DNA of 64,000 bases from Candidatus Altimarinota bacterium. Lineage in GTDB: Bacteria; Patescibacteriota; Gracilibacteria; UM-FILTER-43-11. A model generated the notes under the pieces. It saw only the letters and a list, made by a program, of their open reading frames with translations. It had not been told where the DNA came from and made no database searches. Position numbers and translations under genes: made by a program. Numbering within the stretch: position 1 is the first letter of the stretch; every line of letters begins with the position of its first letter. Below are positions 21,316-56,587 of this stretch, piece after piece. The DNA lies in assembly GCA_028281045.1 (NCBI GenBank), contig JANQKP010000009.1, positions 129,673-193,672 of the forward strand. Reading direction: 5' to 3'.

Positions 21316-21357
21316 TATTAGATTTCTTTTTTATAGAAATCTTCGCGAAAAATAAAA

Positions 21358-32239: not shown

Positions 32240-32268
32240 TTAACTTTTGGCCTATTTTCTGCTATAAT
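32240..32268 (+). promoter_or_regulatory. promoter of 32341-38508 unit
   Basis: TTAACT (32240-32245), a 17-nt spacer, then TGcTATAAT (32263-32268). Confidence 0.5.
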
Positions 32269-32340
32269 ATTTAGATTTATTAAACGCGTTAAAAAATCAA
32301 AACAAAACAGAAAATCATTGGTTTTCTTACCCTCGTTCTA

Positions 32341-40066: not shown

Positions 40067-40558
40067 CTAACGCTTAATGCTGATATCTGGAGCAACACCT
40101 CCTCCACCAGCTCCTTCGCCTTCGGCGTCACAAGCAATGACTTTTACAGTTCCTTCATCTTCCAAATGTAGGGCATAGCCCGTAGTAGTAGCACTACCCG
40201 TTTTAGGATCCTCTGGAACCGTAGCTAAATAGTTAGCTCCAAGCCCTGATAAATCTACACAGGCATCTTCTGTAGAGTCTCCTGCACAATCTCGGTCACA
40301 ACCTGTTCCGGCAGTTCCAATTTGCCAAATATCACCATCGTTCACGGCCGCTACATTAGCGTGATAATCTCCGTTGTTATCTGCTTGGTGCTTCTTAATT
40401 GCATCTAGAATCGTAGAAACATCACTAGAGCGTCTTGCATTTCTAGTTTCATGCAAACGACGCGCTGGATCTATGGCTACAAAGATAGCCCCAGCTAAAA
40501 TCGCCACGATAGCAATGACAATAATAAGTTCTACAAGGGTGAATCCTTTTCTATTCAT
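40067..40558 (-). CDS. type IV pilin-like protein (major-pilin paralog 1)
   Basis: Prepilin leader MNRKG|FTLVELIIVIAIVAILAG. Conserved C-terminal CDAEGEGAGGGG…ISIKR. Confidence 0.88.
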   Translation of the reverse strand: MNRKGFTLVELIIVIAIVAILAGAIFVAIDPARRLHETRNARRSSDVSTILDAIKKHQADNNGDYHANVAAVNDGDIWQIGTAGTGCDRDCAGDSTEDACVDLSGLGANYLATVPEDPKTGSATTTGYALHLEDEGTVKVIACDAEGEGAGGGGVAPDISIKR

Positions 40559-40563
40559 TTTTA

Positions 40564-41049
40564 TTAACGAGTTACTTTAATTTCCGGAGGAGCGCCAGAT
40601 CCACCGGCACCTTCTCCTTCAGGATCACAAGCGTAAACTGAAACAGAGCCTGATTCTAGGCTAATCATATAGCCCGTCATGGCTGCTGTACCTGTCTTAG
40701 GATCCTGAGGAACAGTAGCTAAGTAATTAGCTCCGATAGAAGTTAAATCAACACAGCTTGGATCTGCTGTTTGATTAGCACATTCAACATCACAGCTGCC
40801 CACTTGGGTTCCAATAACGTAAAAATCACCCTCGGTAAGTGACTGAATAGCAGAATAATGATCTCCGTTATTATCCACTTGGTATTTACGAATGGCATCT
40901 AAAATAGTCACCACATCGCTAGACCTTCTGGCGTTACGGGTTTCGTGTAAACGACGCGCTGGGTCTATAGCCACAAAAATCGCTCCGGCCAGAATAGCAA
41001 CAATAGCAATCACAATGATGAGCTCAACAAGCGTAAAACCTTTTTTCAT
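40564..41049 (-). CDS. type IV pilin-like protein (major-pilin paralog 2)
   Basis: MKKG|FTLVELIIVIAIVAILAG. The first ~55 mature residues are nearly identical to paralog 1. C-terminal CDPEGEGAGGSGAPPEIKVTR. Confidence 0.88.
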   Translation of the reverse strand: MKKGFTLVELIIVIAIVAILAGAIFVAIDPARRLHETRNARRSSDVVTILDAIRKYQVDNNGDHYSAIQSLTEGDFYVIGTQVGSCDVECANQTADPSCVDLTSIGANYLATVPQDPKTGTAAMTGYMISLESGSVSVYACDPEGEGAGGSGAPPEIKVTR

Positions 41050-41106
41050 TTATTTTTGTGTACTTTAAAAGTCACCGTGAATTATACACTAGTTCCCAGT
41101 GAAACA

Positions 41107-41613
41107 CTAACGTACAGCTTTAATTTCCGGTGGAGTTCCAGTTCCCCCTGCCCCCTCACCTTCTGTTTCACAGGCATAAACGGTGATTCCATTGTTTTCA
41201 TCTTTTTTCAGGTAGTAGCCTGTTTCAAGATCGGTTCCAATCAGGGGATCTAGCGGAACAATAGGCAGGTAATTACTTCCAATATCTTCAAGGTCTACAC
41301 AATTAGTGATCGTGTCATGATTGTCACAAGTTTTAGCACAACCCACTCCATTGGTTCCAATCATGTAGTATTTATTGGCGTCTAAATCATCAATTTCAGT
41401 GTAATGATTCCCCGCATTATCCGCTTGGTATTTTTTAATTGCATCTACAAGCGTATTTACATCGTTTTTACGAATCGAATTACGCGATTCGTGTAAACGA
41501 CGCGCTGGATCTACGGCTACAAAAATAGCCCCAGCTAAAATCGCAATAATGGCAATCACAATAATCAATTCAACGAGGGTAAATCCTTTAATTTTTTGGA
41601 GTATTTTTTTCAC
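41107..41613 (-). CDS. type IV pilin-like protein (major-pilin paralog 3)
   Basis: MKKILQKIKG|FTLVELIIVIAIIAILAG. C-terminal CETEGEGAGGTGTPPEIKAVR. Confidence 0.88.
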   Translation of the reverse strand: MKKILQKIKGFTLVELIIVIAIIAILAGAIFVAVDPARRLHESRNSIRKNDVNTLVDAIKKYQADNAGNHYTEIDDLDANKYYMIGTNGVGCAKTCDNHDTITNCVDLEDIGSNYLPIVPLDPLIGTDLETGYYLKKDENNGITVYACETEGEGAGGTGTPPEIKAVR

Positions 41614-41631
41614 CTTTCTATTATATAAAGA

Positions 41632-42006
41632 TTAATTGTTAAAATCTAGAATTAAAAACGGATCCAGCTGCACATTCACGTCAAAATCATGCACAAAGTC
41701 ACCTTCAGAGGCTTCAATTTGAATATCTCTTTCTGGGGCTCCAGAAATACTAATAACACAACTAGCACCGTCTACATTTAGCGTTTCACCAGTATAACCA
41801 TTATCTCTTTTAAGCTGAATTAAAGCTTCCTCAAGACAACCTTCAGCTTTTAGATAAAGCTGCTCAGATTCAAGAATATGAAACGTATTCGCACGGCTAG
41901 AAACCCCTGCAAGAGCAATGGTTAAAGCAATAATACTAATCACTGCCCCCAGAATAATAACGGAAGTCAGTGCAATCGCCCCATGATGTGCTTTAAATAA
42001 TTTCAT
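41632..42006 (-). CDS. PilX-like minor pilus protein (N-terminal TM, no G|F site)
   Basis: 124 aa with HGAIALTSVIILGAVISIIALTIALAG. Sits in the minor-pilin block, and its start overlaps the upstream stop. Confidence 0.6.
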   Translation of the reverse strand: MKLFKAHHGAIALTSVIILGAVISIIALTIALAGVSSRANTFHILESEQLYLKAEGCLEEALIQLKRDNGYTGETLNVDGASCVISISGAPERDIQIEASEGDFVHDFDVNVQLDPFLILDFNN

Positions 42007-42575
42007 TAGTTTTCTTGGCGAACGTTATAAGTAGACTTTGAGCTTAAGCTCGCATTAAAATCTTCGTCTGTATTTGTGCTCACAGCTTCAATCGTTAGCT
42101 CAATTTGCACAGAATCCGGCCCCGAAGCAGCGGTTTTATTCGTAATGACAAAATTCGTCACATCCACATGGTCTGAAGTCACGTCGTAACTATTAAATCC
42201 TTCAGTCATTCTTAATTTACGAATGCTAATTTCTTCATCACCTAAGGTGACGTTCTTGGTGTAGGTATCAAATTCGGTATCTAAAGCATTATCCACCGTC
42301 AGTGTTCCAGGATGAGATAGGAACGTAGAAGCACCCTCATCTACCGTATTAGAATTGCGCACTGTGTCTTTCATAAGCTCCATCGCTTGAGCCATATTCA
42401 CTTTCACTTCACGGTTTAATCTAGTTCTGCTTTCTGTGATTTGAACTTGCCAGAAAAGCTGCACAATAAGTGAAAGTACCACGGCAAAGATTCCGACATA
42501 AAGGATCATTTCAACGAGCGTAAACCCCTGTGTTTTTTTCAAAAAGGTTTTCATTCTATGGCCAATCCGAGGCAT
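42006..42575 (-). CDS. minor (pseudo)pilin, prepilin-type N-terminus
   Basis: 189 aa with …KKTQG|FTLVEMILYVGIFAVVLS. Confidence 0.75.
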   Translation of the reverse strand: MPRIGHRMKTFLKKTQGFTLVEMILYVGIFAVVLSLIVQLFWQVQITESRTRLNREVKVNMAQAMELMKDTVRNSNTVDEGASTFLSHPGTLTVDNALDTEFDTYTKNVTLGDEEISIRKLRMTEGFNSYDVTSDHVDVTNFVITNKTAASGPDSVQIELTIEAVSTNTDEDFNASLSSKSTYNVRQEN

Positions 42576-43050
42576 TTGCGTAGTTATGAATATAGGTTTT
42601 TAATTCCAAAGTGCGGTCTACATCTTCAAAAGGAGACCAAGAAATAGTAATGGTCACTTCTTTAGAATCTGGGTCATTCGTTCCACCAGAAGTCACAATA
42701 TCTCCAAAGGCGTCTCGCTGCACATTAGCAACATTAATCACGCGAGTAATACCTTCGTATGTATCTGAAGCTCCTGAAAAGCTCCAAGCGCCAGAGCCAG
42801 AGGCAAGCCCATGATCTCCGTTCGTGATATTGGCCCAATCGTTACTACGAATCGATTTAACCGCTTCAAAGCTTTCGGTTAAAAGATGGCTAGCCTGCAT
42901 ACGTTTCTGATCTTCATGAACAGAAAGCGGACTACCCACAGCTAAAATCGCCAGGCCTCCGGCAATAATCATAAATAGGGCCACGGCAATCACCAGTTCA
43001 ATAAGAGTAAATCCCTGTGATGTCGTTTTCTTAGTACGAATAATCGACAA
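42556..43050 (-). CDS. minor (pseudo)pilin, prepilin-type N-terminus
   Basis: 164 aa with …TTSQG|FTLIELVIAVALFMIIAGG. It overlaps its neighbours by 20 nt on each side. Confidence 0.75.
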   Translation of the reverse strand: MSIIRTKKTTSQGFTLIELVIAVALFMIIAGGLAILAVGSPLSVHEDQKRMQASHLLTESFEAVKSIRSNDWANITNGDHGLASGSGAWSFSGASDTYEGITRVINVANVQRDAFGDIVTSGGTNDPDSKEVTITISWSPFEDVDRTLELKTYIHNYANASDWP

Positions 43051-43519
43051 GGCCTAGTAAATTAACAGAAATAGCAAAGGTTCCATCTCCTTCTATGTTA
43101 GAGCTCAGGCTGAAAGAACCGTGCTGGTTATTTATTCCTGTTTCTTGGGTAAAAATCATTTCATCTCCTCCACCATTTAGGCTAAGAGAATCAATAGAAA
43201 GCGAAGTTGGCAAAACAATCTGACGATCATAATCCGTGTCTCTAGAAATAAAACTAGCTCCTTTAAACAGGGTATAAGTATTAGGACTAGAAGCATCATC
43301 GAATTTAATGCCCCAAGGCGCATCAAGACGCTGTGAAATCGCATTACGATGAGCTTCACGCATGGTTTCTACCATTTGAATCCCATGATTCTTTACATTT
43401 TGCTTACCGAAAACGTTTCCAATCGCTACCAGCGTTCCAGCAAATAAAATAGAAAGAATAATGATCACTATAATCATTTCTACTAAGGTAAATCCCTTTG
43501 GTTTTATAGCAGAAAACAT
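43031..43519 (-). CDS. minor pilin, GspH/FimT-like
   Basis: 162 aa with …KPKG|FTLVEMIIVIIILSILFAG and a FimT/GspH-like HRNAISQR…YTLFKG segment. Confidence 0.7.
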   Translation of the reverse strand: MFSAIKPKGFTLVEMIIVIIILSILFAGTLVAIGNVFGKQNVKNHGIQMVETMREAHRNAISQRLDAPWGIKFDDASSPNTYTLFKGASFISRDTDYDRQIVLPTSLSIDSLSLNGGGDEMIFTQETGINNQHGSFSLSSNIEGDGTFAISVNLLGLVDYSY

Positions 43520-44595
43520 TAGCGAATATTACCAGTAATAGAGTAAATAGGCCCAAGAATGGAAATAGCTACAAATCCTACAAGTAGGCCTACAAAAATC
43601 AGCAGTATAGGCTCTAGACTCGTCGATAAATTCTTCATTTGGTGATCGGTTTCTTCTTCGAGATAATCTCCAATATATCCGAAAGAAGATTCTAGACCCC
43701 CTGTGTTTTCTCCAAGGGCTAGCATTTTCACAAAAAGATCATCAAAAAGCAGTGGATATTTTTTAATCGCTTCCCCAAGTTGTGATCCTTTTTTAACTAG
43801 AGGAATAATGTCGCGAATCGCATTTTGATAATAGTGATTCGTGATCACATCAGAAGAAATTTCTAGACCCTCATCAATAGGAATTCCACTTCCCAGTAAA
43901 GACTCTAACGTGCGACTAAAACGAGCCATCATGATCTTTCTGTATAAAGATCCCATAAGCGGCATCTTAAGCTGCATGTAATGCGTCACAGGACGTGAAA
44001 ACTTTCTATGGGCCACCCAAACAAGAGCAATCACAGTAAAAATAAAGCCCCAGAACACTTGTCTTCCATAATTTTCAAAGAGCTCTGCAAAGAAAAGAAG
44101 CACTTGAGTTGAAACAGGCAGGTCTATATCTAAGCTTCTAAATAGTGGGAGCAGGTTTGGAAGAATAAAAATCGCTACAGATAGTCCAAGACCAACCACG
44201 GCAATTAAAACAAAGGTTGGATAAGTCATAGCAGACCTCACCTTAAGCTTAAATTCTCTTTCCTTATCCATAATCGTAAAAAGCCTTCCAAGACTTTCTT
44301 CAAGAGATCCAGAAAGCTCACCGGTTTTGATTAGATTCACAAAAAGCGGTGAGAAATATTTCGGATAAAGCGCAAAAGATTCATAAAGGTAGCTCCCTTT
44401 TCTTACATTCTCTGAAATACTTTCTAAAACTTGTTTTAATCTACCTTTAGCCTGCTCTCTAGCAAGATCTAAAGAGTCTGCCACGCCATAACCGGCGCGG
44501 ATTCCAGCATAAAGTTGGCGCACTAGAATTAGGCGGTCCTTGGTAGATACTCCGCCAATAACAATCTCTTTGTTTTTCCAGTTTGTTTTGGCCAT
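43519..44595 (-). CDS. pilC: type IV pilus / T2SS platform protein (GspF/PilC family)
   Basis: Duplicated GspF-type domains and three TM segments. I chose ATG 44595 (MAKTNWKNKEI…), 1 nt after the pilB stop, over the ORF-track start at 44646, which overlaps pilB by 50 nt. Confidence 0.88.
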   Translation of the reverse strand: MAKTNWKNKEIVIGGVSTKDRLILVRQLYAGIRAGYGVADSLDLAREQAKGRLKQVLESISENVRKGSYLYESFALYPKYFSPLFVNLIKTGELSGSLEESLGRLFTIMDKEREFKLKVRSAMTYPTFVLIAVVGLGLSVAIFILPNLLPLFRSLDIDLPVSTQVLLFFAELFENYGRQVFWGFIFTVIALVWVAHRKFSRPVTHYMQLKMPLMGSLYRKIMMARFSRTLESLLGSGIPIDEGLEISSDVITNHYYQNAIRDIIPLVKKGSQLGEAIKKYPLLFDDLFVKMLALGENTGGLESSFGYIGDYLEEETDHQMKNLSTSLEPILLIFVGLLVGFVAISILGPIYSITGNIR

Positions 44596-44596
44596 T

Positions 44597-46489
44597 TTAT
44601 TGATTAAGAACACGGAAGAGCTCGTCGATTGTAGTTGATCCAGCAATCACTTTCTTAAGTCCATCTTCAAGCATTTGAGTCATTCCATTTTTAAGCGCTG
44701 CTGCTTCAATATCAGATTGTTTTGCCGCAGAGGTGATCAGATTTCTAATCTCATCATTAAGCTCCATCACTTCAGCCACCACAGTTCTTCCACGGTAACC
44801 AGTGTGACCACATTTAGTGCAGCCCTTTCCTTTGAAAAGACGCATTTCAGCCCCTTCTGCAAAATAGTTCTCAAACAGGGCCTTCTCCTGGTCTCCATGA
44901 AGGAATTTAGCTTTAAATTCTTTGATATCTTTCTTTGGAAGCTTATAGCTCACCTTACAATCGCTACAAATTTTACGCACAAGGCGCTGAGCCACAATAA
45001 GGTTAAGCGTTGAAACAATCAGGTAAGGATCTAGCCCCATTTGTGCTAGGCGCACTGGTGCTAGCGCTGCATTATTCGTATGTAGCGTGCTAAATACCAC
45101 ATGCCCTGTAAGTGAGGCATGTACTGCAATCTTAGCCGTGTCTAAATTACGAATCTCACCCACCATCAGTACGTCCGGATCTTGGCGAAGCAGAGATTTA
45201 AGCCCATCGGCATAAGTTAAATTTGTTTTAGGATTCACTTGAATCTGATTCAGTCCTTTAAGCCCATATTCAATTGGATCTTCAATAGTAGATATATTAA
45301 TCGCATCAGATTGCAGATCTTTAAGCACGGCATAAAGTGTGGTGGTTTTACCACTACCGGTTGGACCGGTCACTAGAATAAGTCCGTTGGTCTTATTCAT
45401 ATTACGCTCAATAAGTTCACGATCTTTAAAATCGTAACCTAGTTCTTCTAGTGTCAGCTCTTGAGTTTCTGAAGTTAAAAGACGAAGTACAATTTTTTCT
45501 CCGTTGTACGTTGGCAGAATAGAAACACGGAAGTTAATTACCGTTGCTCCATAAGTGATTTTAAAGCGGCCATCTTGGGCGCTGCTATGCTCATCTGTTC
45601 TCAGCTTAGAAAGCACTTTCACATGGTTAACTAGTGTTTCTAAGAATGAAACAGGGAGTGAGGTGATTACAGAAAGTACCCCATCCACTCTAAAACGTAC
45701 TAGAATCTCATCTTCAAAAGGTTCTACATGGATATCTGAAGCATTACGGGTATAAGCCATAAGCACCAGTGTATCGAAAATCGTAGAGATGCTGTTGAGC
45801 GAAGAAAGATTCTGAATATTCTGAGAGGCCTTTTCAATCAGGTGATCCACACTTTCATCAGCCTTTTGCTTATAAATTCTAAGGGCTTTTCTTACATCTT
45901 CTGGGGTGGTGTAATTCACCACAGTTTTCTTACCTAGTTTTTCTTCTATTTTCTTAATGAATTTTTCATCCGCTGGATTCACCATGGCAAGATGCACTTC
46001 GGTGTCTGTTGCCTCATAACTAATCACGCCAGCTTCTTTAGCTACTTTTTCATCGATCAGAAGAATGGTATCTAGAGGCACCTTAGCACTTTTAAGCGGC
46101 ACATAAGTGGTTCTAAAGTAAACCGCAATGGCTTGCCCTACTTCTTTAGGTTTTAGGTAGTTTTTTGCCACAATAATATCTGCAATATTATTCCCCGTTT
46201 TCATATGCTCTTCAATCACGGTAGCTACAGACTCATCGTCTAAAAGCCCCAGCTTTTTAAGATGCGTTAAGATCTTCTTATTGAGCGCCTCATCGTAGCT
46301 AGACATTTCTTCTTCGAAATGACGCACGATGAATCGTCCAATTTTACCGGTTTCTTCTAGCTCAGGAGCTTTTTCTTCAGTGGTTTTTTCCACTTTAGCC
46401 TCCTTGGAAGTAGCTTCCTCAGACAGCTTTTTTTCCTCCTCTTTTTGAGCTTTATCTTTAGTGATTTTTTTCTTGGCGAATTTAGCCAT
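44597..46489 (-). CDS. pilB: type IV pilus assembly ATPase (GspE/PilB family)
   Basis: Walker A GPTGSGKTTT, DPDVLMVGEIRN, His box STLHTN, and a CxxC…CxxC Zn motif. GspE_N-like N-domain preceded by a K/E-rich extension of about 55 aa. Confidence 0.93.
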   Translation of the reverse strand: MAKFAKKKITKDKAQKEEEKKLSEEATSKEAKVEKTTEEKAPELEETGKIGRFIVRHFEEEMSSYDEALNKKILTHLKKLGLLDDESVATVIEEHMKTGNNIADIIVAKNYLKPKEVGQAIAVYFRTTYVPLKSAKVPLDTILLIDEKVAKEAGVISYEATDTEVHLAMVNPADEKFIKKIEEKLGKKTVVNYTTPEDVRKALRIYKQKADESVDHLIEKASQNIQNLSSLNSISTIFDTLVLMAYTRNASDIHVEPFEDEILVRFRVDGVLSVITSLPVSFLETLVNHVKVLSKLRTDEHSSAQDGRFKITYGATVINFRVSILPTYNGEKIVLRLLTSETQELTLEELGYDFKDRELIERNMNKTNGLILVTGPTGSGKTTTLYAVLKDLQSDAINISTIEDPIEYGLKGLNQIQVNPKTNLTYADGLKSLLRQDPDVLMVGEIRNLDTAKIAVHASLTGHVVFSTLHTNNAALAPVRLAQMGLDPYLIVSTLNLIVAQRLVRKICSDCKVSYKLPKKDIKEFKAKFLHGDQEKALFENYFAEGAEMRLFKGKGCTKCGHTGYRGRTVVAEVMELNDEIRNLITSAAKQSDIEAAALKNGMTQMLEDGLKKVIAGSTTIDELFRVLNQ

Positions 46490-46515
46490 TTTTTTAGTTT
46501 TATATTAATCTATAT

Positions 46516-46524
46516 ATTATACCA
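46516..46524 (-). promoter_or_regulatory. possible extended -10 promoter for pilB
   Basis: The minus strand reads TGGTATAAT about 25 nt upstream of the pilB ATG. The -35 is weak (TTTATT). Confidence 0.35.
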
Positions 46525-46573
46525 AAAAAACGCCCAAAAATAAAGGGTTTTTAGCTAGTAAAAGCCAAAAAGC

Positions 46574-46945
46574 TTATTTTCCTAAAAATTCGTGAACAAC
46601 GCGCTTGAGCTCTTCAAGAGTAACGTTAGATTTTTCAAAGAAATCTACAGCTCCTAGGGCAATAACATCTTCTTTTCTAAACTCTTTAGGAAAGTTGGTG
46701 TATACCATGACAGGAGTCTTGTTTTTCTCTTCTTTAAGCCGTTGAAGCACTTCTGTGCCTAGTAAAATAGGCATTTGAAGATCTAAAATAACAAGGTCAA
46801 AAGCGTTTTCTCTAATTAAATCTAGAGTTTTTTGACCATCGCTAGCTTCAGTCACTTCAAAACCTTCTTCTTTAAAGCACTGGCCAATAATCTGCTTTAA
46901 AAAGGAGTCGTCTTCCGCAATTAAAATTTTATGAGAGGTGGGCAT
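46574..46945 (-). CDS. single-domain CheY-like response regulator
   Basis: 123 aa with the full receiver signature: EDD, LVILDLQMP, T in VYTN, K in FFEKS. Confidence 0.9.
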   Translation of the reverse strand: MPTSHKILIAEDDSFLKQIIGQCFKEEGFEVTEASDGQKTLDLIRENAFDLVILDLQMPILLGTEVLQRLKEEKNKTPVMVYTNFPKEFRKEDVIALGAVDFFEKSNVTLEELKRVVHEFLGK

Positions 46946-46963
46946 GGGGCATGGGTTAAATCA

Positions 46964-47326
46964 CTATTTTACTGTATTTTTTACGATTTCAACTAACTCG
47001 TCAATGGCAACATCAGATTTAATATAAAATCCTTTGGCACCAAGTTTCAGCACTTCTTCTTTGTCTTCTTCTTGAGACAAGTTACTAAATACAAACACAG
47101 GAGTTTTATCCTTTCTTTCTGCTAGCTCTTTTAGAACGGCAAAACCGTCTTTTTTGGGCATAATAAGGTCCAGTAGCACCATGGCGTATTTATTCTTTTC
47201 CATAAGCGCTAGGGCTTCTTCACCATCGTTCGCTTGATCTACTTCAAAACCTTCTTCTTTTAATCTATTTGAAGAGATTTTTACTAGGAACGGGTCGTCT
47301 TCTGTGATCAGAATTTTTTTAGACAT
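46964..47326 (-). CDS. single-domain CheY-like response regulator
   Basis: 120 aa with TEDD, MVLLDLIMP, FSN and YIKS receiver residues. Confidence 0.9.
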   Translation of the reverse strand: MSKKILITEDDPFLVKISSNRLKEEGFEVDQANDGEEALALMEKNKYAMVLLDLIMPKKDGFAVLKELAERKDKTPVFVFSNLSQEEDKEEVLKLGAKGFYIKSDVAIDELVEIVKNTVK

Positions 47327-47348
47327 TGGTTTTTAATTTAAATGATAA

Positions 47349-50273
47349 TTAACTGATTTTATGTTGAATGATTTTCTTGTTTCCAGACTTTTTAACTGGT
47401 CCTTTGAGGGGCAGAGTAACAACAAAGGTGCTTCCTTTCCCCTCTTCTGATTCTACACTAATATTTCCATGACAAACATGGAGAATTTTCTTGATGATAT
47501 AGAGTCCAAGCCCAGAGCCGGTCGTAGAGTACTTAGCGGCTTCAGCCGTTCTATAGAACTTCGTGAAGAGTTTCTTTTGATCGTCTTTAGAAATACCAAT
47601 CCCCTGGTCCATAAAGCGCATTTCAACGCCTTTAGGCTTAGAAAGGAGCTCAACGGTCACCTTAGTATTTGGATTACTGTACTTGATTGCATTCGAAACT
47701 AGATTCGCAATCACTTGGCCTATCAGCTGTTGATCTAAACTGATATTAATCTTCTTTTTAGGTACTTTTACAGTGAGCGTTTGCCCCCTATCTTTCGCCA
47801 GAATATTAGCTTCTTGCACGATTTCTTTAATAAGAGCTGGTAAATCGGTAGGCTCAGAAGTCACATCAATAGCCCCTGTTTCCAGGCGTGAAACATTAAG
47901 TAAATCATTCACAAGTTGAATCATACGATGATTCGATTTAAGTGCATCTTCAATGTACTCCTTGTCGTCTTTCTTAAGTTTTCCACGACGAAGCACCTCT
48001 TCAAGAAGCCATTTGATCCCCGTAGATGGGGTACGAAGCTGATGCGAAGCCAGGGAAACGAACTCGCTCTTCGCCTGATCGATCTCTCTTTCCTTGGTGA
48101 TGTCATGGAAAATTGCAATCGCTCCCAGACACGTTTTGCCATGCATAATAGGGGTCGCCGTTACGTCTATGTAAACCTTCACATCTTTAGAGATATAGGC
48201 AATAGGCTTTCTTACTTTTTTCTTCTCTTTAAGGGCTCTATTAATAGGCCAATTCTTAGGCGGAACTGGGTTTCCTTTTAGGTCTTCAACACGTCCTTGC
48301 TCAGATTCTACATGTTTTTCCATTTGAGATTCTTTAATGTTGAACCACTTAAGAATCTCCTGCCCTGAAGGATTGGTGAAGATAATATCTCCCTTGGCGT
48401 CTATGGCTACAATCCCTTCACCCATGTTGTTCAAAATAGCCTCAAGCTTAATTTTTTCCTGGTCTACAAGTGCTTTGGATTTAGTAATATTACGATTACT
48501 TTTTTGTAGCTCTGCCGCGGAAGCTTTAAGATCATCTGCTTTTTGTTTATTTTCTGCAATCAAGGCTTGCAGATTATCTGCCATAAGATCTGTAGCCACC
48601 AGTAGATCTGTAAATTCATCTTCTTCATCTGGAAGCTCTAGGCGCTTAGTGAAATCTCCTAAAGATAAGCTGTGAAGCACCGGAGTAATGGTATCTACCC
48701 TAGTCTTCGCATATTTTTTAAGCACACTCAGGTCATTGATTACGGCTAAGAATCCTACTAGTTCACCGTTTTCATCTTGCAACTTAGCCCCCGTACATTG
48801 AACAGGAATCTTGGTTCCTTTTCTGGTGATGTCTAATGACAATGTTTTACGCCCCTTAGATTGGAATTTTTCCATAAGCACACACTCGTGGTGCTTATCT
48901 CCCTTGTACCGCTTGGTGAGATAGCGACACAAGTGTTTTTCTGCGAGCTGTTTCTTACTTATATCCAGCAGGTCATAAGTCGCTTGATTCGCCGAAATAA
49001 CGGCCCCTGTTTTATCCATTACAATAATAGACTCTGGTACCGTTTCATAAATATTTTCAATCTCGCGAAGCGATGAGGTGAGTTTATCAGCCATATCATT
49101 AAAGGCCTTCGCAAATTCTCCAATTTCATCATTGCTATCTATTCTAGCTCTTTTACTGAGCTTACCTCTTTTAATATCCCTCACCGTACCAGAAAGCCGA
49201 TCAATAGGCCTGGTGAAGAAGCGGGCAAACCAGAATACGAACATAATGGTCACTCCTATCATCACCAAGGCAAAAACCACTACAATTTGGCGTAAAATAA
49301 GAAAGGCTTCTCTGAAAAGATCCTTTGGTACAAAGCGGAAGAGTACCCAGTAGCGATCAGGATCATCTTGATCATACCGAATAGGAATAGAGTAGCTAAT
49401 ATTTCCGTTGGCCTCTGTTACTGTAAGCTCTTTCCCAAAATCAACGTCCTGGAAACCTTCATAGTCAGCTCTAAATTGCTCTCCTGTATTTAAATCAGAG
49501 CTTCCTCCCCATCTTTTTTCCTCTTCAGGGTGAAACAAATAATAACCATCCTGATCAACCAGTAGGGATTCAACCCTGGTCCCAAAAAAAGCATCTCCAA
49601 AAATATCAAATAAGGCTTCCGCATTCACATTAGAAATCACAGCCCCTTTTCTGTTGCCATCCTTATCAAAAATAGGCGCCGCCAATCTAATCATGGGTCT
49701 AATAGGCTGCACAATTTGAGGTGGGCTGCCTTCTTTATTAAGATCTACAGGCGAAATATAAATATTGTCATATTCATGCGTCATCGCCTCCTGAAAATAG
49801 TAGCGTTCCTTTTTATTTTGGAGGTTTTCTTTGGCCACCCTTTCTACAACCCCATTTTTGCTATTTATACGCACTACCTCAAAGCCATTCTCATCAATAT
49901 ATCTAAGCTGAGCGTATTGCGGATGCACCGCCATAAAGCCACTAAAGGCTTCATTAATGCGTTCTATAATGGTTTCTCGATCTACTTCAAAACCAGGAAC
50001 AGTACCTGTTGATTCATCGTAGTTAATCAGGGCTACAACGCCCGGTAATCTAGATATAAAGCGAATTTCTGACTTGAGCTCAAAAAGAAAGAGCTCAATA
50101 CGCATTTCATCCGATCTCAAATTTTCTTCAGCTTCAGCAATCTCATGCTCTACCAGGGCATCTGAAGCGGTTACCATCATCAGCCTAAGACCTGCCCCAA
50201 AAACAATTACGAAAAATATAGCTAGAGTCAGCATTAATTTTTCCCTAATTTTTAGGTGCTTAAATATGCTCAA
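47349..50273 (-). CDS. sensor histidine kinase (TM - dCache-like - TM - HAMP - PAS - HAMP-like - PAS - HisKA - HATPase)
   Basis: 974 aa. H-box SHQLRTPSTG. N/G boxes (NLVSNAIKYS, DQGIGI, GSGLGLYI). HAMP (FTRPIDRLSGTVRDIKRGKL…DEIGEFAKAFNDMADKL). Cache-like periplasmic segment. Confidence 0.92.
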   Translation of the reverse strand: MSIFKHLKIREKLMLTLAIFFVIVFGAGLRLMMVTASDALVEHEIAEAEENLRSDEMRIELFLFELKSEIRFISRLPGVVALINYDESTGTVPGFEVDRETIIERINEAFSGFMAVHPQYAQLRYIDENGFEVVRINSKNGVVERVAKENLQNKKERYYFQEAMTHEYDNIYISPVDLNKEGSPPQIVQPIRPMIRLAAPIFDKDGNRKGAVISNVNAEALFDIFGDAFFGTRVESLLVDQDGYYLFHPEEEKRWGGSSDLNTGEQFRADYEGFQDVDFGKELTVTEANGNISYSIPIRYDQDDPDRYWVLFRFVPKDLFREAFLILRQIVVVFALVMIGVTIMFVFWFARFFTRPIDRLSGTVRDIKRGKLSKRARIDSNDEIGEFAKAFNDMADKLTSSLREIENIYETVPESIIVMDKTGAVISANQATYDLLDISKKQLAEKHLCRYLTKRYKGDKHHECVLMEKFQSKGRKTLSLDITRKGTKIPVQCTGAKLQDENGELVGFLAVINDLSVLKKYAKTRVDTITPVLHSLSLGDFTKRLELPDEEDEFTDLLVATDLMADNLQALIAENKQKADDLKASAAELQKSNRNITKSKALVDQEKIKLEAILNNMGEGIVAIDAKGDIIFTNPSGQEILKWFNIKESQMEKHVESEQGRVEDLKGNPVPPKNWPINRALKEKKKVRKPIAYISKDVKVYIDVTATPIMHGKTCLGAIAIFHDITKEREIDQAKSEFVSLASHQLRTPSTGIKWLLEEVLRRGKLKKDDKEYIEDALKSNHRMIQLVNDLLNVSRLETGAIDVTSEPTDLPALIKEIVQEANILAKDRGQTLTVKVPKKKINISLDQQLIGQVIANLVSNAIKYSNPNTKVTVELLSKPKGVEMRFMDQGIGISKDDQKKLFTKFYRTAEAAKYSTTGSGLGLYIIKKILHVCHGNISVESEEGKGSTFVVTLPLKGPVKKSGNKKIIQHKIS

Positions 50274-50274
50274 A

Positions 50275-51570
50275 TTAAGAATTATTATTTTCTAGCTTTC
50301 TAATTTTTTGTTGAAGAAGATCTATTTCTTTTTCCATGGCCTTCATTTTCTTATGACGCTTCAGATTCAAGCGTCCCATGAACTCCATTTGTTCTACCTT
50401 GTCTTGCAAGGCCCTTTCAGCAATTCTACGCCCTGTAATGTCATGCAAAATAGAGCGTGTTCTAACAAAATTACCGTCTTGGTCGTAAGCGGCCACAGAG
50501 TCTATTTCTACTTCTATTTTTTCTCCTGTTTTTGTCACTACATGACCATGAGGAATATAAATAGCTCCTTCTTTCTTGAGTTTTTCAAAGCCTTTTTTAA
50601 CATCTTTTATAAGCTCAGGTGCATATAGCTTAAACACATCCATGCCAATGAGCTCATCTTCTGTGTAACCCAGCATTTCTATAGATTTACGGTTCACAAA
50701 TAGAATGCGCCCTTTAGCGTCCACAGAGTGAATCATATCGGGAGAGTTTTCTACGATGTCTTTATATCTCGCCTCAGAACCGGTCACTTGTTTTAGGGTT
50801 TCAATCTGATCTGTGATATCCACCAAAATACCCACATAGTGAGTCACTTTTCCGGCATCATTTTTCACAGGTGAAATAGTGAGATCATTCCAAAAAGAGG
50901 TTCCATCTTTTTTGTAGTTATAAAGCTGCAATTTTATAGGCTCCCCTTTTTTAATAGCTTCGCCAATAAGCTTGGCAGAGTCTCCATTAGTGTGTTTACC
51001 CTGTAAAAATCTACAATTTTTACCAAGGACTTCTTCTTTGGTGTAACCCGTAATCTCCGTAAAGGCATCATTACTGTAAATAATAGGATTATCTTTTTGC
51101 TCAGCATCTGTAATAATAATCCCACTCGTTACTGTATCTAAGGCACGCCCCTTAAGCATAAGTTGCTCACTAATTTCAGACATTTCAGTCACATCATGCA
51201 CGATGCTCCGTGTTCTAATGAAGTGATGATTTTTATCGTAAATGGCAATGGAGTCTATTTGCACTTCAATAACGTCTCCATTTCTCTTTAGCATTTTTCC
51301 ATGAGATACATGTAGCTCCCCTTTTTTCTTAAGCACTTTAAACCCCTTTTCCACTTCCTTATACAGCTCTGGAGCATAGATGTCTTTAAGATGTTTCCCA
51401 ATGATCTCAGACCTCTTGTAGCCTAAAACCTTACATTCCTTTTTATTGGCGTAAACAATAAAACCCTTATCATCCACGGAATGAATCATGTCCGGAGAGT
51501 TTTCTACAATGTCTTTATAGCTTTCTCCAAGGTCGAAATCATCTTTTTTATTTTGCATTTTTTTGGCCAT
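50275..51570 (-). CDS. PAS-LOV-PAS photosensor-like protein with C-terminal coiled coil, no output domain
   Basis: The central domain carries GKNCRFLQG with FMN-pocket Asn residues. The flanking PAS domains are duplicates (YKDIVENSPDMIHSVD… occurs twice). I prefer ATG 51570 (MAKKMQNKK…). The ORF-track start at 51591 is a TTG lying at or upstream of the predicted TSS. The stop is 1 nt from the kinase start. Confidence 0.88.
   Translation of the reverse strand: MAKKMQNKKDDFDLGESYKDIVENSPDMIHSVDDKGFIVYANKKECKVLGYKRSEIIGKHLKDIYAPELYKEVEKGFKVLKKKGELHVSHGKMLKRNGDVIEVQIDSIAIYDKNHHFIRTRSIVHDVTEMSEISEQLMLKGRALDTVTSGIIITDAEQKDNPIIYSNDAFTEITGYTKEEVLGKNCRFLQGKHTNGDSAKLIGEAIKKGEPIKLQLYNYKKDGTSFWNDLTISPVKNDAGKVTHYVGILVDITDQIETLKQVTGSEARYKDIVENSPDMIHSVDAKGRILFVNRKSIEMLGYTEDELIGMDVFKLYAPELIKDVKKGFEKLKKEGAIYIPHGHVVTKTGEKIEVEIDSVAAYDQDGNFVRTRSILHDITGRRIAERALQDKVEQMEFMGRLNLKRHKKMKAMEKEIDLLQQKIRKLENNNS
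50806..51144 (-). other. LOV domain (domain-level call)
   Basis: GIIITDAEQKDNPIIYSNDAFTEITGYTKEEVLGKNCRFLQGKHTNGDSAKLIGEAIKKGEPIKLQLYNYKKDGTSFWNDLTISPVKNDAGKVTHYVGILVDIT. The Cys codon is at 51013-51015. Confidence 0.85.
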
Positions 51571-51596
51571 AATATTTTTATTTTTATGCAAGTTTT

Positions 51597-51605
51597 ATTG
51601 TAGCA
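51597..51605 (-). promoter_or_regulatory. possible extended -10 promoter of the LOV-kinase-CheY-CheY unit
   Basis: The minus strand reads TGCTACAAT immediately after the 51606-51632 terminator. Confidence 0.35.
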
Positions 51606-51632
51606 CAAAAAAACCCTACCAAGGGTAGGGCT
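51606..51632 (-). terminator. intrinsic terminator after the SLH gene
   Basis: The minus strand reads CCCTACC-CTT-GGTAGGG followed by TTTTTTT. Confidence 0.75.
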
Positions 51633-51647
51633 TTAGAATTATTTTAA

Positions 51648-52757
51648 CTATTGCTCAGTGCCTCCAACTTGCCCCAAAATCTCACGGGCTCTTTCTTTAA
51701 TATGCTTAGCAATAGGTTGGGTAGCGTTGTTAGCCTCCCAAGCTTCAGTGGCTTTATTTATAGCGTCGTTCGCTTTAGCCTCAGCTTCGTCGTACTTTCT
51801 TTGAATTCCTAGAATAAAGCTATCTACAAGCCAGTCGTAGGCGCGGGCAAGTTTAGCTGCCCCTAGTACTACGTTATTCGTTGGCATGTTCTTATAAGCT
51901 TGTTGTGTAAGGTCTACGGCTAGCTCTGAAGCTTTCTTGGAAAGCAGAATCTTATTCGCCGCTACATACACTTCAATCTGAGCCATTTCAGCTTCAGCCC
52001 TATCTAAAAGGAACTGTGTATTTTGTCCGTTTCTAATTAGGGCCAGAATATAAAGCACATCGGCTACTTCAGAACGAGTCATAGCCTTGCTTGGATTCAG
52101 TTTATTTTCATGATCTGGAGCCACTAGCCCAAGCTGAGCTGCATAGTACATATAAGGTCTAAACCAGGCCTCTTGGGACACATCTGCATAATCGCCCTCA
52201 ACAGCTTCAATGGCATTAGGATCAATGCGGTTTGCTAGAAGGAGCATCTTAAGAAGCTCTGCCTTATTCACTTGGCGCCCAGGAGCAAAAGAACCATCGG
52301 CATTTCCTGTAATCACAGAAAGTCTTTTGGCTTTTTTAACGTATTTAGCAAACCAGGCATCTTGAGGCACATCTCCAAAACCTGTTGCATCTTGATCTTC
52401 ATCAATTTCAATTCCAGAACCAGCAAGAATCACCTTAAGTACTTCTGCACGGTTAATAGAGTTATCTGGCCCAAAAGTTCCATCTCCATAACCATTCAGT
52501 ACACCAGCTTGGCTTAAGTAAGTTACCGCTGTGTAATGTGGATGGCTGCGTGGCACATCAGAAAATCCGGTCACCACTTTCATTCCAGAGTCCGTTATTG
52601 CCTCATCGGCAAATGCATGAGAAAAAGCAAAGAAAGAGCTAAACACAATTAGCGCTGATACGAGCCGAGTTCCCCATGATGATAGTTTTAAATCTCCCAC
52701 TTGTTTATTTTTTATTTTTGCAGGCCCTATTCTAGCATGCAAAGGTAAAAAATGCAA
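51648..52757 (-). CDS. S-layer-homology (3x SLH) domain protein with helical C-terminal domain
   Basis: Signal peptide (…FFAFSHAFA). Three SLH repeats (FSDVPRSHPHYTAVTYLSQAGVLNGYGDGTFGPDNSINRAEVLKVIL; FGDVPQDAWFAKYV…; YADVSQEAWFRPYM…). Confidence 0.85.
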   Translation of the reverse strand: MHFLPLHARIGPAKIKNKQVGDLKLSSWGTRLVSALIVFSSFFAFSHAFADEAITDSGMKVVTGFSDVPRSHPHYTAVTYLSQAGVLNGYGDGTFGPDNSINRAEVLKVILAGSGIEIDEDQDATGFGDVPQDAWFAKYVKKAKRLSVITGNADGSFAPGRQVNKAELLKMLLLANRIDPNAIEAVEGDYADVSQEAWFRPYMYYAAQLGLVAPDHENKLNPSKAMTRSEVADVLYILALIRNGQNTQFLLDRAEAEMAQIEVYVAANKILLSKKASELAVDLTQQAYKNMPTNNVVLGAAKLARAYDWLVDSFILGIQRKYDEAEAKANDAINKATEAWEANNATQPIAKHIKERAREILGQVGGTEQ

Positions 52758-52759
52758 TT

Positions 52760-53122
52760 TTAATCCTTCTTCGAAGCCGCCTCTTCTACAATGACAAGCA
52801 GGTCAGAAAATTTAAAAGGTTTTTCTACGTAAGAAAAAATCTGATTATTCACTAGAGCATCTTTGATTTTTTCATTTTGAATACCGGTAATCACAATAAT
52901 TGGAGTCTTCATGTTCCACTTCTCAGCCTGAAGAATAAGCTTATCTCCTCTAAGCTCAGGCAGACTAATATCTACAACCGCTGCGTCATACTTATTGTTA
53001 ATAAGCATTGAAAGCCCATCCACACCAGAGGTTGCGGTTTCGCAGGTAAATCCATTTTCCGTAAAATCTGCAACGAGCTGCTCCACTAACTCTTCGTTGT
53101 CATCCACAATAAGTAATTTCAT
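52760..53122 (-). CDS. single-domain CheY-like response regulator
   Basis: 120 aa with VDDN, AVVDISLP, VITG and VEKPF receiver residues. Confidence 0.9.
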   Translation of the reverse strand: MKLLIVDDNEELVEQLVADFTENGFTCETATSGVDGLSMLINNKYDAAVVDISLPELRGDKLILQAEKWNMKTPIIVITGIQNEKIKDALVNNQIFSYVEKPFKFSDLLVIVEEAASKKD

Positions 53123-53227
53123 ATGTTTGTTATTTTAAAGGTTGTTGGTTTTTTTAAACCTAATGCACAAAAAAGCAAAAGTCAAACACCAATAACAAAT
53201 CGATAATAATTTGATAATAACCTGGTC

Positions 53228-53920
53228 TTAATTGTGCTCAGAGCCTGTGCGCAAGATGTAACCAATACCGTGAACGGTCTCAATCAGCTTGTCTTCTTTT
53301 TTAAGATCTAGCTTTTTTCTCAGGATAGAAACATGTGAATCTACTGTGTTAGAAATCACTCTAGAATCATAGTCCCACACCCTTTCAATCAGGGTAGATC
53401 TGGGAATCACCTGGTCAGCGTGCTTCACTAAGTAATGAAGTAAGTCATACTCCTTCATACGAAGTTTAATTTCTTTCCCTGCCTTAGAAACAGAGCGGGT
53501 TTTAGGTTTAATACATATGTCTTTAATCACAATATCACTTTGAGAAGTGTCTTTTGTCTTTTTTCCTCTCCTGAGTAAGGCATTAATACGCACATTTAAT
53601 TCTACGAAAGAGAAAGGTTTAGAAAGGTAATCATCGGCCCCCATATTCAGTAGTTTTACCTTGGAGTCTAGGTCACTTAGAGCAGTGAGCACAATCACAG
53701 GCAAATCAATACCTCTGTCTTTATATTGGCTTAAAACTTCTGCCCCATTGAGATCAGGCAAGATTAAGTCTAAAACAATGACGCTATGTAAATTTTCATC
53801 AATTTTATCTAGCGCTTCTTGGCCGGTGGCTGCATGGGTGACTTGGTGACCCTCGCCTTGAAAACCTTTGATTAAAAATTGGGCTAACTCGTGATCATCT
53901 TCAACTAAAAAGATATTCAT
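53228..53920 (-). CDS. OmpR/PhoB-family response regulator (REC + winged helix)
   Basis: MNIFLVEDDHE…VIVLDLILPD…SKPF, followed by the winged-helix segment LRMKEYDLLHYLVKHADQVIPRSTLIERVWDYD…VHGIGYIL. The ORF-track start at 53944 adds 8 unlikely residues. Confidence 0.9.
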   Translation of the reverse strand: MNIFLVEDDHELAQFLIKGFQGEGHQVTHAATGQEALDKIDENLHSVIVLDLILPDLNGAEVLSQYKDRGIDLPVIVLTALSDLDSKVKLLNMGADDYLSKPFSFVELNVRINALLRRGKKTKDTSQSDIVIKDICIKPKTRSVSKAGKEIKLRMKEYDLLHYLVKHADQVIPRSTLIERVWDYDSRVISNTVDSHVSILRKKLDLKKEDKLIETVHGIGYILRTGSEHN

Positions 53921-54194
53921 AATTCTAAGCATTACTTTTATCATTAGATTATCCCAATTTAACAGGGAAAAGCAATTTATTAACGTAAAAAATTAATCTT
54001 TTTATAAGCTTTCGATAATAAAAAGATTAGATAAAAATAGCGGTCTTTTGAGAATTCATTAATGAACCACAGGTATTAATGAGGTCAAACTAATTATGAC
54101 CAACCCGCTATTTTATGCCTAATTTGCTAAACATCATTAGCAATGAAGCCACTCCTAAACAAGGTTTGGTTTATTTAGTTAACCACAAAATTCC

Positions 54195-55571: not shown

Positions 55572-55594
55572 TTTATAACTAACCACAATTTATT

Positions 55595-56551
55595 ATGACT
55601 AATGAGACTCTATCGGGAGCTGCCAAAACGCCAGAGGCTTCTTCAACGAAGCCACAGGCTCCAGATTTAAAAATCGCTATTGATACCCGAAGCAGGGTAG
55701 AAGAAACCCAAGAAAGACCCAAAATTATTGGAGAAGTGATGAATTCCCATGAAATTGCGCCAGAAACGGTGGTAGAAGTCACTAACTTTTATAGGTATAT
55801 ATTTGGGAACACCATGCATTTCATTGCAGCCCCAGACCTTGGCGAAAGTTTAACGGCCAGAGAATTCTTTGGAACTGGACGTGATTTTGTGCCAGTAAAG
55901 CAAATGGATGCGCTCATGTCTTTCCCTGATAATCCATGGCCAGGGGAAGAAGCCTTATTGGTTTATCATCCACCAACACTTAGAAAAAATTTAGAGCGCA
56001 AACTAATAGAAAGTGAAGATAGTATTTTAAGCCTACTTCGAAACGAAAAAGATGAGATTGTAGGGCTAGCCTTTTGTTATGTGAGCGAATTACTTAGGGA
56101 GTTGGAACTAGAGTGGATTAGTAGGTACAACTTTGCAGACCCAACAAGACAAAAACCAGAATGGCAAAGAGACCCTGAAAAATTCCTAAAAGGGGTGGAG
56201 CGTGTTTACGGTAAGCCTTTCGATGGCAGCGAAGTTATTATGGCTTGGAACTGTATGAGCGTGCTTCCTGAAGCCTCAGGGAGCTTGCCATTACTCATGA
56301 GAAACATGCTAGGAAAAATTGGGCCAGATCAAAGAGACATGCTTATGATGGGAGATGTAAAAAAAGACTCAAAAGCACATCAAATCTTTAGAACCATTGA
56401 AGCCAAAGATGGCACCGGCTTCTTTGAAGACGAAGGCGATATCTTAATTGGCGGAATAGCCGGAACTATTGCCGACACCTTCTCTATGGATCCAGAAGAA
56501 TTTAAAAAGAAAAGACAGGTTTTTAATAAAAACTCTGGTGAATCTAAATAA
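55595..56551 (+). CDS. hypothetical protein (318 aa), possibly GNAT-like fold
   Basis: It follows the decarboxylase by 23 nt. The segments IVGLAFCYV and MSVLPEASGSLPLLMRNMLGKI…AHQIFRTIEAKDGTGFF loosely resemble the acetyltransferase beta4-alpha3/beta5-alpha4 regions. The resemblance is weak. Confidence 0.6.
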   Translation: MTNETLSGAAKTPEASSTKPQAPDLKIAIDTRSRVEETQERPKIIGEVMNSHEIAPETVVEVTNFYRYIFGNTMHFIAAPDLGESLTAREFFGTGRDFVPVKQMDALMSFPDNPWPGEEALLVYHPPTLRKNLERKLIESEDSILSLLRNEKDEIVGLAFCYVSELLRELELEWISRYNFADPTRQKPEWQRDPEKFLKGVERVYGKPFDGSEVIMAWNCMSVLPEASGSLPLLMRNMLGKIGPDQRDMLMMGDVKKDSKAHQIFRTIEAKDGTGFFEDEGDILIGGIAGTIADTFSMDPEEFKKKRQVFNKNSGESK

Positions 56552-56587
56552 GACTTGGATATAATGAATTTAAAATAAAATCAAAAA

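Follow-up and report, generated by a model that had tools for sequence, protein, structure and literature searches.

What do the signalling genes control that directly precede a type IV pilus (T4P) operon in Candidatus Altimarinota bacterium? The DNA stretch in question, the window, comprises 64,000 nt (assembly GCA_028281045.1, contig JANQKP010000009.1, positions 129,673 to 193,672). It codes for a PAS-LOV-PAS protein, a sensor histidine kinase and two stand-alone receivers (REC1 and REC2), followed on the same strand by pilB, pilC and pilin genes. An initial annotation, based on the sequence alone, had proposed that blue light and an extracellular ligand gate pilus extension through these proteins. 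The two-component cassette beside the pilus genes is real and of a classical type. It is plausibly tied to T4P by comparative genomics, and we attribute a probability of about 0.5 to the reading that it controls the pilus, and does so post-translationally. The blue-light input would be an add-on of a single genome, with uncertain activity.

The cassette and the adjoining pilus operon

The genes are found where they had initially been placed, and Pfam confirms each of them (Table 1). The spacings are exact (22 nt between kinase and REC1, 18 nt between REC1 and REC2, 84 nt between REC2 and pilB). A third CheY-like receiver (REC0), an OmpR-type regulator and an SLH protein are encoded just upstream, with REC0 ending 2 nt ahead of the SLH gene. 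The 1-nt gap reported between the LOV gene and the kinase gene exists only if the kinase starts with TTG; in the public gene call, the start is an ATG located 40 nt further downstream. For the PAS-LOV-PAS protein, the ATG at 51570 has an alternative in a TTG at 51591.

Table 1. Features of the cassette, the pilus operon and their upstream genes (positions refer to the whole 64,000-nt window; all cassette and pilus genes are on the minus strand)
Feature	Position	Strand	Evidence and details
OmpR/PhoB-type response regulator	53228..53944	-	Pfam Response_reg and Trans_reg_C; NCBIfam PhoB-like 183 bits, below cut-off
REC0, stand-alone receiver	52760..53122	-	Pfam Response_reg 9.6e-19; Asp51; K-P motif
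SLH protein	51648..52757	-	Pfam SLH 1.9e-35; signal peptide; 3 SLH domains; conserved C-terminal helical domain
Intrinsic-terminator-like hairpin 3' of the SLH gene	51610..51634	-	11-bp stem, 5 GC pairs, then T-run
TGCTACAAT, extended -10 element ahead of the LOV gene	51597..51605	-	Direct reading; aligns with the promoter type of the lineage
PAS-LOV-PAS protein	50275..51570	-	431 aa from ATG; three PAS stretches in Pfam
LOV core	50785..51153	-	Cys186 51013-51015; Leu249 50824-50826; Gly203 50962-50964
Class I transmembrane sensor histidine kinase, 974 aa	47349..50273	-	dCache, HAMP, PAS, HAMP-like, PAS, HisKA, HATPase
REC1, stand-alone receiver, directly 3' of the kinase	46964..47326	-	Pfam 1.3e-24; Asp53
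REC2, divergent stand-alone receiver, directly 5' of the pilB promoter	46574..46945	-	Pfam 5.7e-25; Asp55
pilB promoter TGGTATAAT-ATATAGAT	46508..46524	-	TTTATT 17 nt upstream
pilB, type IV pilus assembly ATPase	44597..46489	-	Pfam T2SSE 2e-121; weak MshEN match
pilC, platform protein	43519..44646	-	Pfam T2SSF 2.9e-54; likely start 44613
Three minor-pilin-like genes, 124-aa open reading frame (ORF), three tandem major-pilin paralogues	40067..43519	-	N_methyl matches in public gene calls
Terminator closing the pilus operon	40055-40030	-	

The downstream genes form a T4P assembly locus, with a PilB-type ATPase, PilC and prepilins that have GFTLVE-type N-termini. PilB scores 478 bits against NCBIfam type_IV_pilB (below the cut-off of 676), and PilC has 364 aa in the public gene call. 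The 124-aa ORF among the pilin genes has no family match. Neither pilM/N/O nor pilT or pilD is found among the genes of the window.

The kinase is a transmembrane sensor kinase of class I (HisKA). It has an H box (SHQLRTP, with His744), an N box (847) and G boxes (G1 at 889, G2 at 919). Two transmembrane segments (13-29 and 330-350) flank a dCache-type outside domain, and the signalling and catalytic part is cytoplasmic. The domain matches include dCache_1 (47.7 bits, cut-off 45), HK_sensor_dom_bact and HATPase_c (6.1e-28). The domain order given initially (dCache-HAMP-PAS-HAMP-PAS-HisKA-HATPase) stands, except for the second HAMP, which reaches only 17.8 bits, the cut-off being 25. Its designation as a hybrid kinase was wrong because there is no receiver domain: Pfam and NCBIfam detect neither a receiver nor an HPt domain, and the protein stops 17 residues past HATPase_c. 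Orthologues are 36-42% identical, the closest ones being from metagenome-assembled genomes labelled Peregrinibacteria, Peribacteria, Gracilibacteria or Patescibacteria.

REC0, REC1 and REC2 have 120-123 aa each and are stand-alone CheY-like receivers. As had been claimed for the two that follow the kinase, the phospho-acceptor residues are intact (REC1: DD9-10, D53, S and K; REC2: DD, D55, T and K), and this is also the case for REC0 (DD, D51, T and K-P). Only Response_reg reaches the Pfam cut-off. Pfam detects neither PATAN nor any other output domain, so that the receivers are not of the PatA (PATAN-REC) type. REC1 is 52-68% identical to the first post-kinase receiver in nine relatives, and this receiver follows the kinase at 13-90 nt (six annotated loci where the gap is measurable). 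REC2 shares 47% identity with REC1 and 32-46% with the receivers of relatives. REC0 is more distant, with only 24-26% identity to either of the two. In the pilB-linked receiver family, strand beta-5 is followed by Lys-Ser, at a site where CheY-like receivers usually have Lys-Pro; REC0 keeps Lys-Pro.

Receivers recur upstream of pilB

Conservation of the gene neighbourhood had been named as a check on the initial proposal. Relative loci that were compared with the window carry L-numbers (e.g., L007). In the Peregrinibacteria-like patescibacterial lineage to which the window belongs, the backbone is rpoC-S12-S7-SLH-pilB-pilC-pilins, with a varying insert between the SLH gene and pilB that is made up of a PAS-only protein, a dCache kinase and one to three stand-alone receivers. 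The pilB-side set comprises 12 orthologous loci, window included, and is partly biased, some loci having been found via the kinase or the PAS protein (L090 was picked through its link to a PAS homologue). At least one receiver is encoded directly 5' of pilB in 8 of these 12 loci (window, L007, L009, L010, L086, L090, L091 and L092). The same adjacency is seen in three of seven loci that were sampled regardless of the cassette. Kinase and receivers thus recur beside pilB, while only the window has a LOV domain among 16 members of the PAS-protein family. The outcome of the neighbourhood check is mixed, with the balance in favour of kinase and receivers belonging with pilB.

PilB orthologues are 50-72% identical. 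The receiver-linked PilBs share only 43-83% identity with each other and 44-57% with that of the window; therefore, the receiver-pilB linkage spans deep branches. The individual arrangements differ. L090 has the full cassette, then PilB. L007 has FIST-PAS(861)-NMT1-type binding protein-kinase-REC-REC-PilB-PilC-pilins, L009 has S7-SLH-REC-PAS(1201)-sugar-binding protein-kinase-REC-PilB-PilC-pilins, and L010 has SLH-kinase-REC-kinase(1470)-REC-REC-PilB-PilC. Kinase-REC x3-PilB is found in L086 (a metagenome scan with the N-terminal half of PilB gave at least one locus), and OmpR x2-MBL-PAS-dCache pieces-REC-REC-PilB in L092. The insert is reduced to a single receiver in L091 (S7-SLH-REC-PilB). 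Receiver genes next to the SLH gene, as REC0 in the window, are also found in L009, L091 and L020.

The SLH protein is the conserved 5' neighbour of the pilB locus, being 57-65% identical in relatives, which is above the conservation of the kinase. It has a conserved C-terminal helical domain of about 140 aa and may be a cell-wall-anchored pilus component in an envelope that is devoid of PilQ.

A PAS-tail protein (see below) is encoded upstream of the dCache kinase in eight loci (window, L002, L003, L004, L007, L009, L090 and L092). The closest homologues of the PAS protein are from L002, L003 and L004, where the order is S7-SLH-PAS protein-(139-141 aa membrane protein)-dCache kinase-REC-REC(-REC). 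The gene between PAS protein and kinase varies. It codes for a multi-pass membrane protein of 139-141 aa without family match in L002 (11710-12132), L003 (2521-2943), L004 (3423-3848) and L090 (3590-4009), for an NMT1-type binding protein in L007 (3451-4521) and for a sugar-type solute-binding protein in L009 (7711-9045); the window has none. This variation suggests that these proteins are exchangeable co-sensors for the dCache kinase.

The linkage is not restricted to the close relatives. A set of 80 loci was collected with the kinase profile (30 labelled Patescibacteria or candidate phyla radiation (CPR), 46 labelled as other phyla). T4P genes (PilB, PilC or pilins) occur within 10 kb of the kinase in 12 of the 80 loci. 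Eleven of these are among the 30 Patescibacteria/CPR loci and one is from an unlabelled "bacterium", while none is among the 46 from other phyla. Two Saccharibacteria loci have kinase-REC-6 nt-PilB (L018) and REC-24 nt-PilB-PilC-pilins-kinase-REC (L019), and a Paceibacterota locus has kinase-REC-4 nt-PilB (L022). Their receivers share with REC1 the signature SNLxQxxD...LGAxxYxVKSD, with K-S in place of K-P. That the receiver-pilB arrangements differ argues for repeated selection of the linkage and not for a single inherited accident. The recurrent layout suggests that attachment pili are steered by two-component signalling.

The PAS-LOV-PAS protein

The middle PAS domain of the PAS-LOV-PAS protein is related to Bacillus subtilis YtvA (4.5e-35) and to phototropin LOV domains (1e-31) in a phmmer search of the PDB, and the LOV core matches NCBIfam YtvA_fam (3.4e-51, below cut-off). 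The assignment as LOV domain holds with respect to the adduct cysteine (Cys186 in GKNCRFLQG, aligned to YtvA Cys62, with the full NCRFLQ motif) and to both flavin-contacting asparagines (Asn218 in NYKKDG and Asn228 in FWN, at the positions of AsLOV2 N482 and N492). Two other residues of the flavin site depart from the consensus. The active-site Gln (YtvA Gln123, AsLOV2 Gln513) is replaced by Leu249 (VGILVD versus VGIQND), and the second basic residue for the phosphate of flavin mononucleotide (FMN) (YtvA Arg79, AsLOV2 Arg467) is replaced by Gly203. Photoactivity of the LOV domain is plausible, yet not assured.

The first departure has natural counterparts. About 350 LOV receptors lack the Gln (LOV-deltaQ), mostly having Leu or Ile at this site, and signalling is retained in Leu variants of YF1, NmPAL and AsLOV2 (PMC9098866). 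Unlike the LOV-deltaQ receptors, the LOV domain of the window also lacks the second FMN-phosphate Arg, while Arg or Lys is found at the Gly203 site in all eight of the nearest LOV domains. Moreover, the LOV domain is present in only 1 of the 16 members of the PAS-tail family, that of the window, and the window showed no further gene related to light. These points weigh against a light sensor. They would be accounted for if the module were a degenerate or repurposed PAS domain, with a role in flavin/redox sensing or in structure, an alternative that concerns the light branch only and is independent of those discussed below. We consider it a serious contender that nevertheless falls short of an even chance, given the retained Cys and Asn residues, the signalling Leu variants and the close relationship (55-60% identity) to LOV domains of 626-aa PAS-LOV kinases from marine Flavobacteriaceae, where the Gln is likewise replaced by Leu in several cases. 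Its G+C content (0.374) is that of the flanking regions, which argues that the LOV module is an established, maintained part of the gene.

The LOV module was probably acquired horizontally a long time ago. A recent transfer was rejected because of the matching G+C content. A chimeric assembly was rejected as well, because an independent public Logan contig (SRR20820735) is 100% identical over 20.4 kb. Since the LOV domain is a singleton in its family, gating of pili by blue light is at best a local elaboration. A functional blue-light input is, in our view, roughly half as probable as pilus control itself.

The AlphaFold2 model of the protein has a mean pLDDT of 91.3, with values above 90 across the LOV domain. 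It consists of three PAS folds joined by helices and ends in a continuous C-terminal helix of 51 residues (379-429). The LOV domain is flanked on both sides by copies of a signature PAS (YKDIVENSPDMIHSVD) that are 56% identical to each other. This signature PAS, together with the tail EQMEF[MI]GRxN[LI]KR[HY]KK and a subsequent coiled coil, characterizes a small, lineage-restricted PAS-only family (members P0002-P0010, P0022 and P0242-P0252). The tail has the invariant core QMExxGRxNxKR. In the window, its motif is EQMEFMGRxNLKRHKK and is part of the 51-residue helix (tail region 50278-50439, minus strand).

A search with the tail in 1.8 billion representatives (E <= 0.001) gave 20 matches, of which one was a spurious HEAT-repeat protein and eight were already known. 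The tail is C-terminal in every true match, and all seven of the newly found matches that were scanned have PAS domains only. A word-index search with the 51-aa tail gave no candidates, and no relative of the tail was detected in Pfam or PDB. The possibility that the tail is a degenerate DHp/H-box helix, which docks on the kinase, was rejected upon profile-profile comparison (probability of 0.2%). Fusions of the signature PAS motif (SPDMIHSVD) to a kinase were not found in the fetched loci, so that there is no Rosetta-stone evidence for the partnership.

Proposed pilus control and its alternatives

The pilB gene has a promoter of its own. The TGGTATAAT element, which had been recognized initially in the 84-nt spacer between REC2 and pilB, is present (46524-46516), and so are the terminator ahead of the LOV gene (hairpin and T-run, 51634-51610) and the subsequent TGCTACAAT element (51605-51597). 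A generic promoter/terminator scan of the window gave no excess over shuffled sequences, and only specific conserved elements were counted as evidence. The 17-mer TGGTATAATATATAGAT upstream of pilB has three matches in the window, where 0.14 are expected. The other near-copies (21307-21323 and 32260-32276, plus strand) precede unrelated operons, which code for very large proteins of unknown function (DUF4215, TSP3 repeats, DUF7467). The three copies are of a standard sigma-70 extended -10 type (TTGAyT, 17 nt, TGnTATAAT, ATAnAGAT). The pilB promoter is kept in L007, L009, L010, L086, L087, L090, L091, L092 and L093, whether the cassette is present or absent. Therefore, pilB-pilC-pilins is a transcription unit of its own. 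No additional operator block is conserved at the pilB promoter beyond the -35 and extended -10 elements. Such a consensus-like promoter is consistent with control that is post-translational and not transcriptional.

A structured RNA or attenuator in the REC2-pilB spacer was rejected (fold z-score of -0.85), and the window has no Rfam or tRNA matches. The terminator had been taken to mark the start of the unit. The hairpin exists, but a boundary at this site is doubtful: what is conserved upstream of pilB is the SLH gene, and the cassette varies as an insert between the two.

Several observations weigh against pilus control. The separate pilB unit has the same promoter in relatives that lack the cassette. 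Four of the 12 pilB loci (L087, L088, L089 and L093) have no receiver but a direct S7-SLH-PilB order. In L002-L004, the gene that follows the receivers codes for another PAS protein (about 840 aa) and not for PilB; this gene is followed by the contig end in L002 and L003 and by a solute-binding protein gene in L004. A PilB feature specific for receiver-linked loci was searched for and rejected (three weakly discriminating columns, no N-terminal motif). The receivers cannot be assigned to a named regulator family, all NCBIfam matches being far under the cut-offs. To this is added the bias in the locus set mentioned above.

The first three of these observations would also fit an ordinary two-component system with an output unrelated to pili, the gap between the SLH gene and pilB being a tolerated insertion site and the position being inherited. 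The insert is indeed highly variable, with zero to three receivers, with or without the PAS protein, with the membrane protein of 139-141 aa or solute-binding proteins and, in some cases, with a second kinase. About 43 kb of extra genes between those for S7 and EF-G in the window indicate that the region accepts insertions. We nevertheless rate this explanation as rather unlikely. Even the minimal L091 locus has a receiver at the exact spot, and the receiver-pilB linkage persists across PilB lineages that are only 44-57% identical. Independent and differently arranged receiver/kinase-T4P linkages exist in Saccharibacteria, Paceibacterota and Jacksonbacteria, with spacings of 4-24 nt between receiver and pilB, and the T4P linkage is unevenly distributed among phyla (see above). 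The PilBs of the four receiver-less loci belong to one subclade (69-82% mutual identity), and their nearest relative is the PilB from L091. The simplest reading is that the insert has persisted through deep divergence, one subclade having lost or reduced it.

A transcriptional output is also conceivable. The kinase would then act on an OmpR-type regulator, that encoded at 53944-53228 or one elsewhere, the receivers would be phosphate sinks or relays, and the targets may include pilus genes. According to NCBIfam, the catalytic core of the kinase is WalK/PnpS/PhoR-like, and such kinases normally pair with OmpR-family regulators. In NCBIfam, the top scores of REC1 and REC2 are those for receiver domains of OmpR-family, PleD and RssB proteins, and OmpR-type genes are found 1.6 kb upstream in the window and, in two copies, upstream of the cassette in L092. 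This explanation is improbable, since the OmpR-type regulator is absent from most relatives (being kept with the cassette only in L092 and missing beside it in L002, L004, L009 and L090), an orphan kinase (56588-58690) is nearer to the regulator gene of the window, there is no HPt protein for a relay, the pilB promoter has only standard elements that also precede unrelated operons, and the closest solved relative of REC1, Thermotoga maritima RR468 (4.6e-17), pairs with a PhoR-like kinase.

Comparison with known systems

All parts of the cassette are known, and control of T4P by receivers is an established principle. In Synechocystis, photoreceptor input reaches the T4P motor PilB1/PilC via Tax1 (PixJ-PixL-PixG/PixH) and PixD-PixE, and signals pass from the photoreceptor to a histidine kinase and on to two response regulators with different roles (PMC11181946; bioRxiv 10.1101/2021.06.11.447907). 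The cyanobacterial kinase is, however, CheA-like and is coupled to a photoreceptor of the methyl-accepting chemotaxis protein (MCP) type, while the window has a transmembrane HisKA kinase, bare receivers and a LOV domain on a separate PAS-only protein. The precedent, which was invoked initially, thus applies only in part. Receivers that act on PilB/PilC are known, but it is the PATAN domain that binds PilB1/PilC in Synechocystis, whereas the plain CheY-type PixH and PilH did not, which is a further point against action of the PATAN-free window receivers on the motor.

In Pseudomonas aeruginosa, the antagonistic single-domain receivers PilG and PilH of the Pil-Chp system control T4P activity (PMC10519157). 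This resembles the system proposed here, in which two single-domain receivers would govern the pilus. REC1 and REC2 are, however, not specifically related to PilG and PilH, and the Pil-Chp input consists of ChpA (CheA-like) and PilJ (an MCP), unlike that of the cassette. CheA, MCP and CheW domains were not detected by Pfam in the cassette genes or in the other scanned ORFs of the window.

LOV input to two-component signalling in a non-phototroph is represented by the LOV histidine kinases (Caulobacter LovK-LovR, Brucella LOV-HK and the PAS-LOV kinases of Flavobacteriaceae). There, LOV is fused to the kinase; in the window, it is on a separate PAS-only protein beside a dCache kinase that lacks LOV. 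In the Caulobacter LovK-LovR system, LovR is a single-domain receiver, and the system affects cell attachment.

HK853-RR468 from Thermotoga maritima resembles the window in that a PhoR-like class I kinase is encoded in an operon with a stand-alone receiver; HK853 pairs with RR468. It has no pilus context, and RR468 has no known output. PilS-PilR is a two-component system that is dedicated to T4P genes. PilR activates pilin transcription as an NtrC-type sigma-54 regulator, unlike the regulators of the window, and neither an AAA+ nor a Fis-type HTH output domain was found at the locus in Pfam and NCBIfam.

Proposed function

If the cassette controls the pilus, the kinase would integrate an extracytoplasmic ligand (dCache) with cytoplasmic signals, which may come from its own PAS domains and from the partner PAS protein. 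In relatives, the outside input may sometimes be supplemented by the adjacent solute-binding proteins. The kinase is predicted to phosphorylate REC1, its conserved cognate receiver, and probably REC2 as well. Lacking an output domain, the phosphorylated receiver would contact PilB and/or PilC and so tune pilus extension. The second receiver may be an antagonist or a phosphate sink. The constitutive-looking pilB promoter would fit such post-translational control. The LOV protein may modulate the kinase or the receivers via PAS contacts or via its tail, and this is the weakest step. If the LOV domain still binds flavin, blue light would be an added input, in the genome of the window only.

It is tempting to combine these elements. 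The bare receiver upstream of pilB would then be, throughout the Patescibacteria, a dedicated switch that depends on phosphorylation and binds to the extension ATPase of the pilus or to its platform, in a minimal system free of CheA and PATAN. Here, it would be wired to light by a horizontally acquired LOV domain on a PAS-only adaptor with an undescribed C-terminal output helix. That all of this applies jointly is a long shot.

T4P play a central role in the episymbiotic life of Patescibacteria. [quoted passage not shown] In the literature searched, we found no report on pilus regulation in Patescibacteria or on a two-component link to T4P in these organisms, nor one on LOV domains in Patescibacteria. 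Most useful is the finding that receivers and pilB are paired repeatedly across the radiation. Together with the kinase, this pairing provides concrete candidates for pilus regulators, accessible to tests in Saccharibacteria, which are genetically tractable. The dCache domain and the solute-binding proteins suggest how such cells might sense their host or environment. If the LOV module is photoactive, a CPR bacterium would sense light via two-component signalling, albeit in a single genome. If the switch is indeed wired to light, an ultra-small episymbiont would have its host attachment or its twitching gated by light.

Other features of the region

(a) The region upstream of the OmpR-type regulator gene (54195-58690, plus strand, opposite to the cassette) codes for an Orn/Arg decarboxylase, a 318-aa protein without match and the 700-aa orphan HisKA kinase (56588-58690). 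The block is near the gene of the OmpR-type regulator, for which the kinase is a candidate partner.

(b) The str operon is split in the window. The genes for rpoC, S12 and S7 (63551-58716, minus strand) are about 43 kb away from that for EF-G (15160-13073, minus strand). The intervening stretch holds the pilus and signalling genes as well as several ORFs of 550-1040 aa without Pfam match. In relatives, unlike in the window, S7 is directly followed by the SLH gene.

(c) A second pilus locus exists in Peregrinibacteria (L094, JGI contig of P0227). It codes for the paralog PilB2 (44% identical), PilC, pilins and PilM, and has neither a receiver nor a kinase gene. It is preceded by a divergent gene for a Trp-repressor-like protein and a trp operon.

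(d) The three tandem major pilins of the window (40067-41613, minus strand) have 168, 161 and 163 aa and four conserved cysteines. They show 54-60% identity to the first paralog, and their N-terminal helices are identical.

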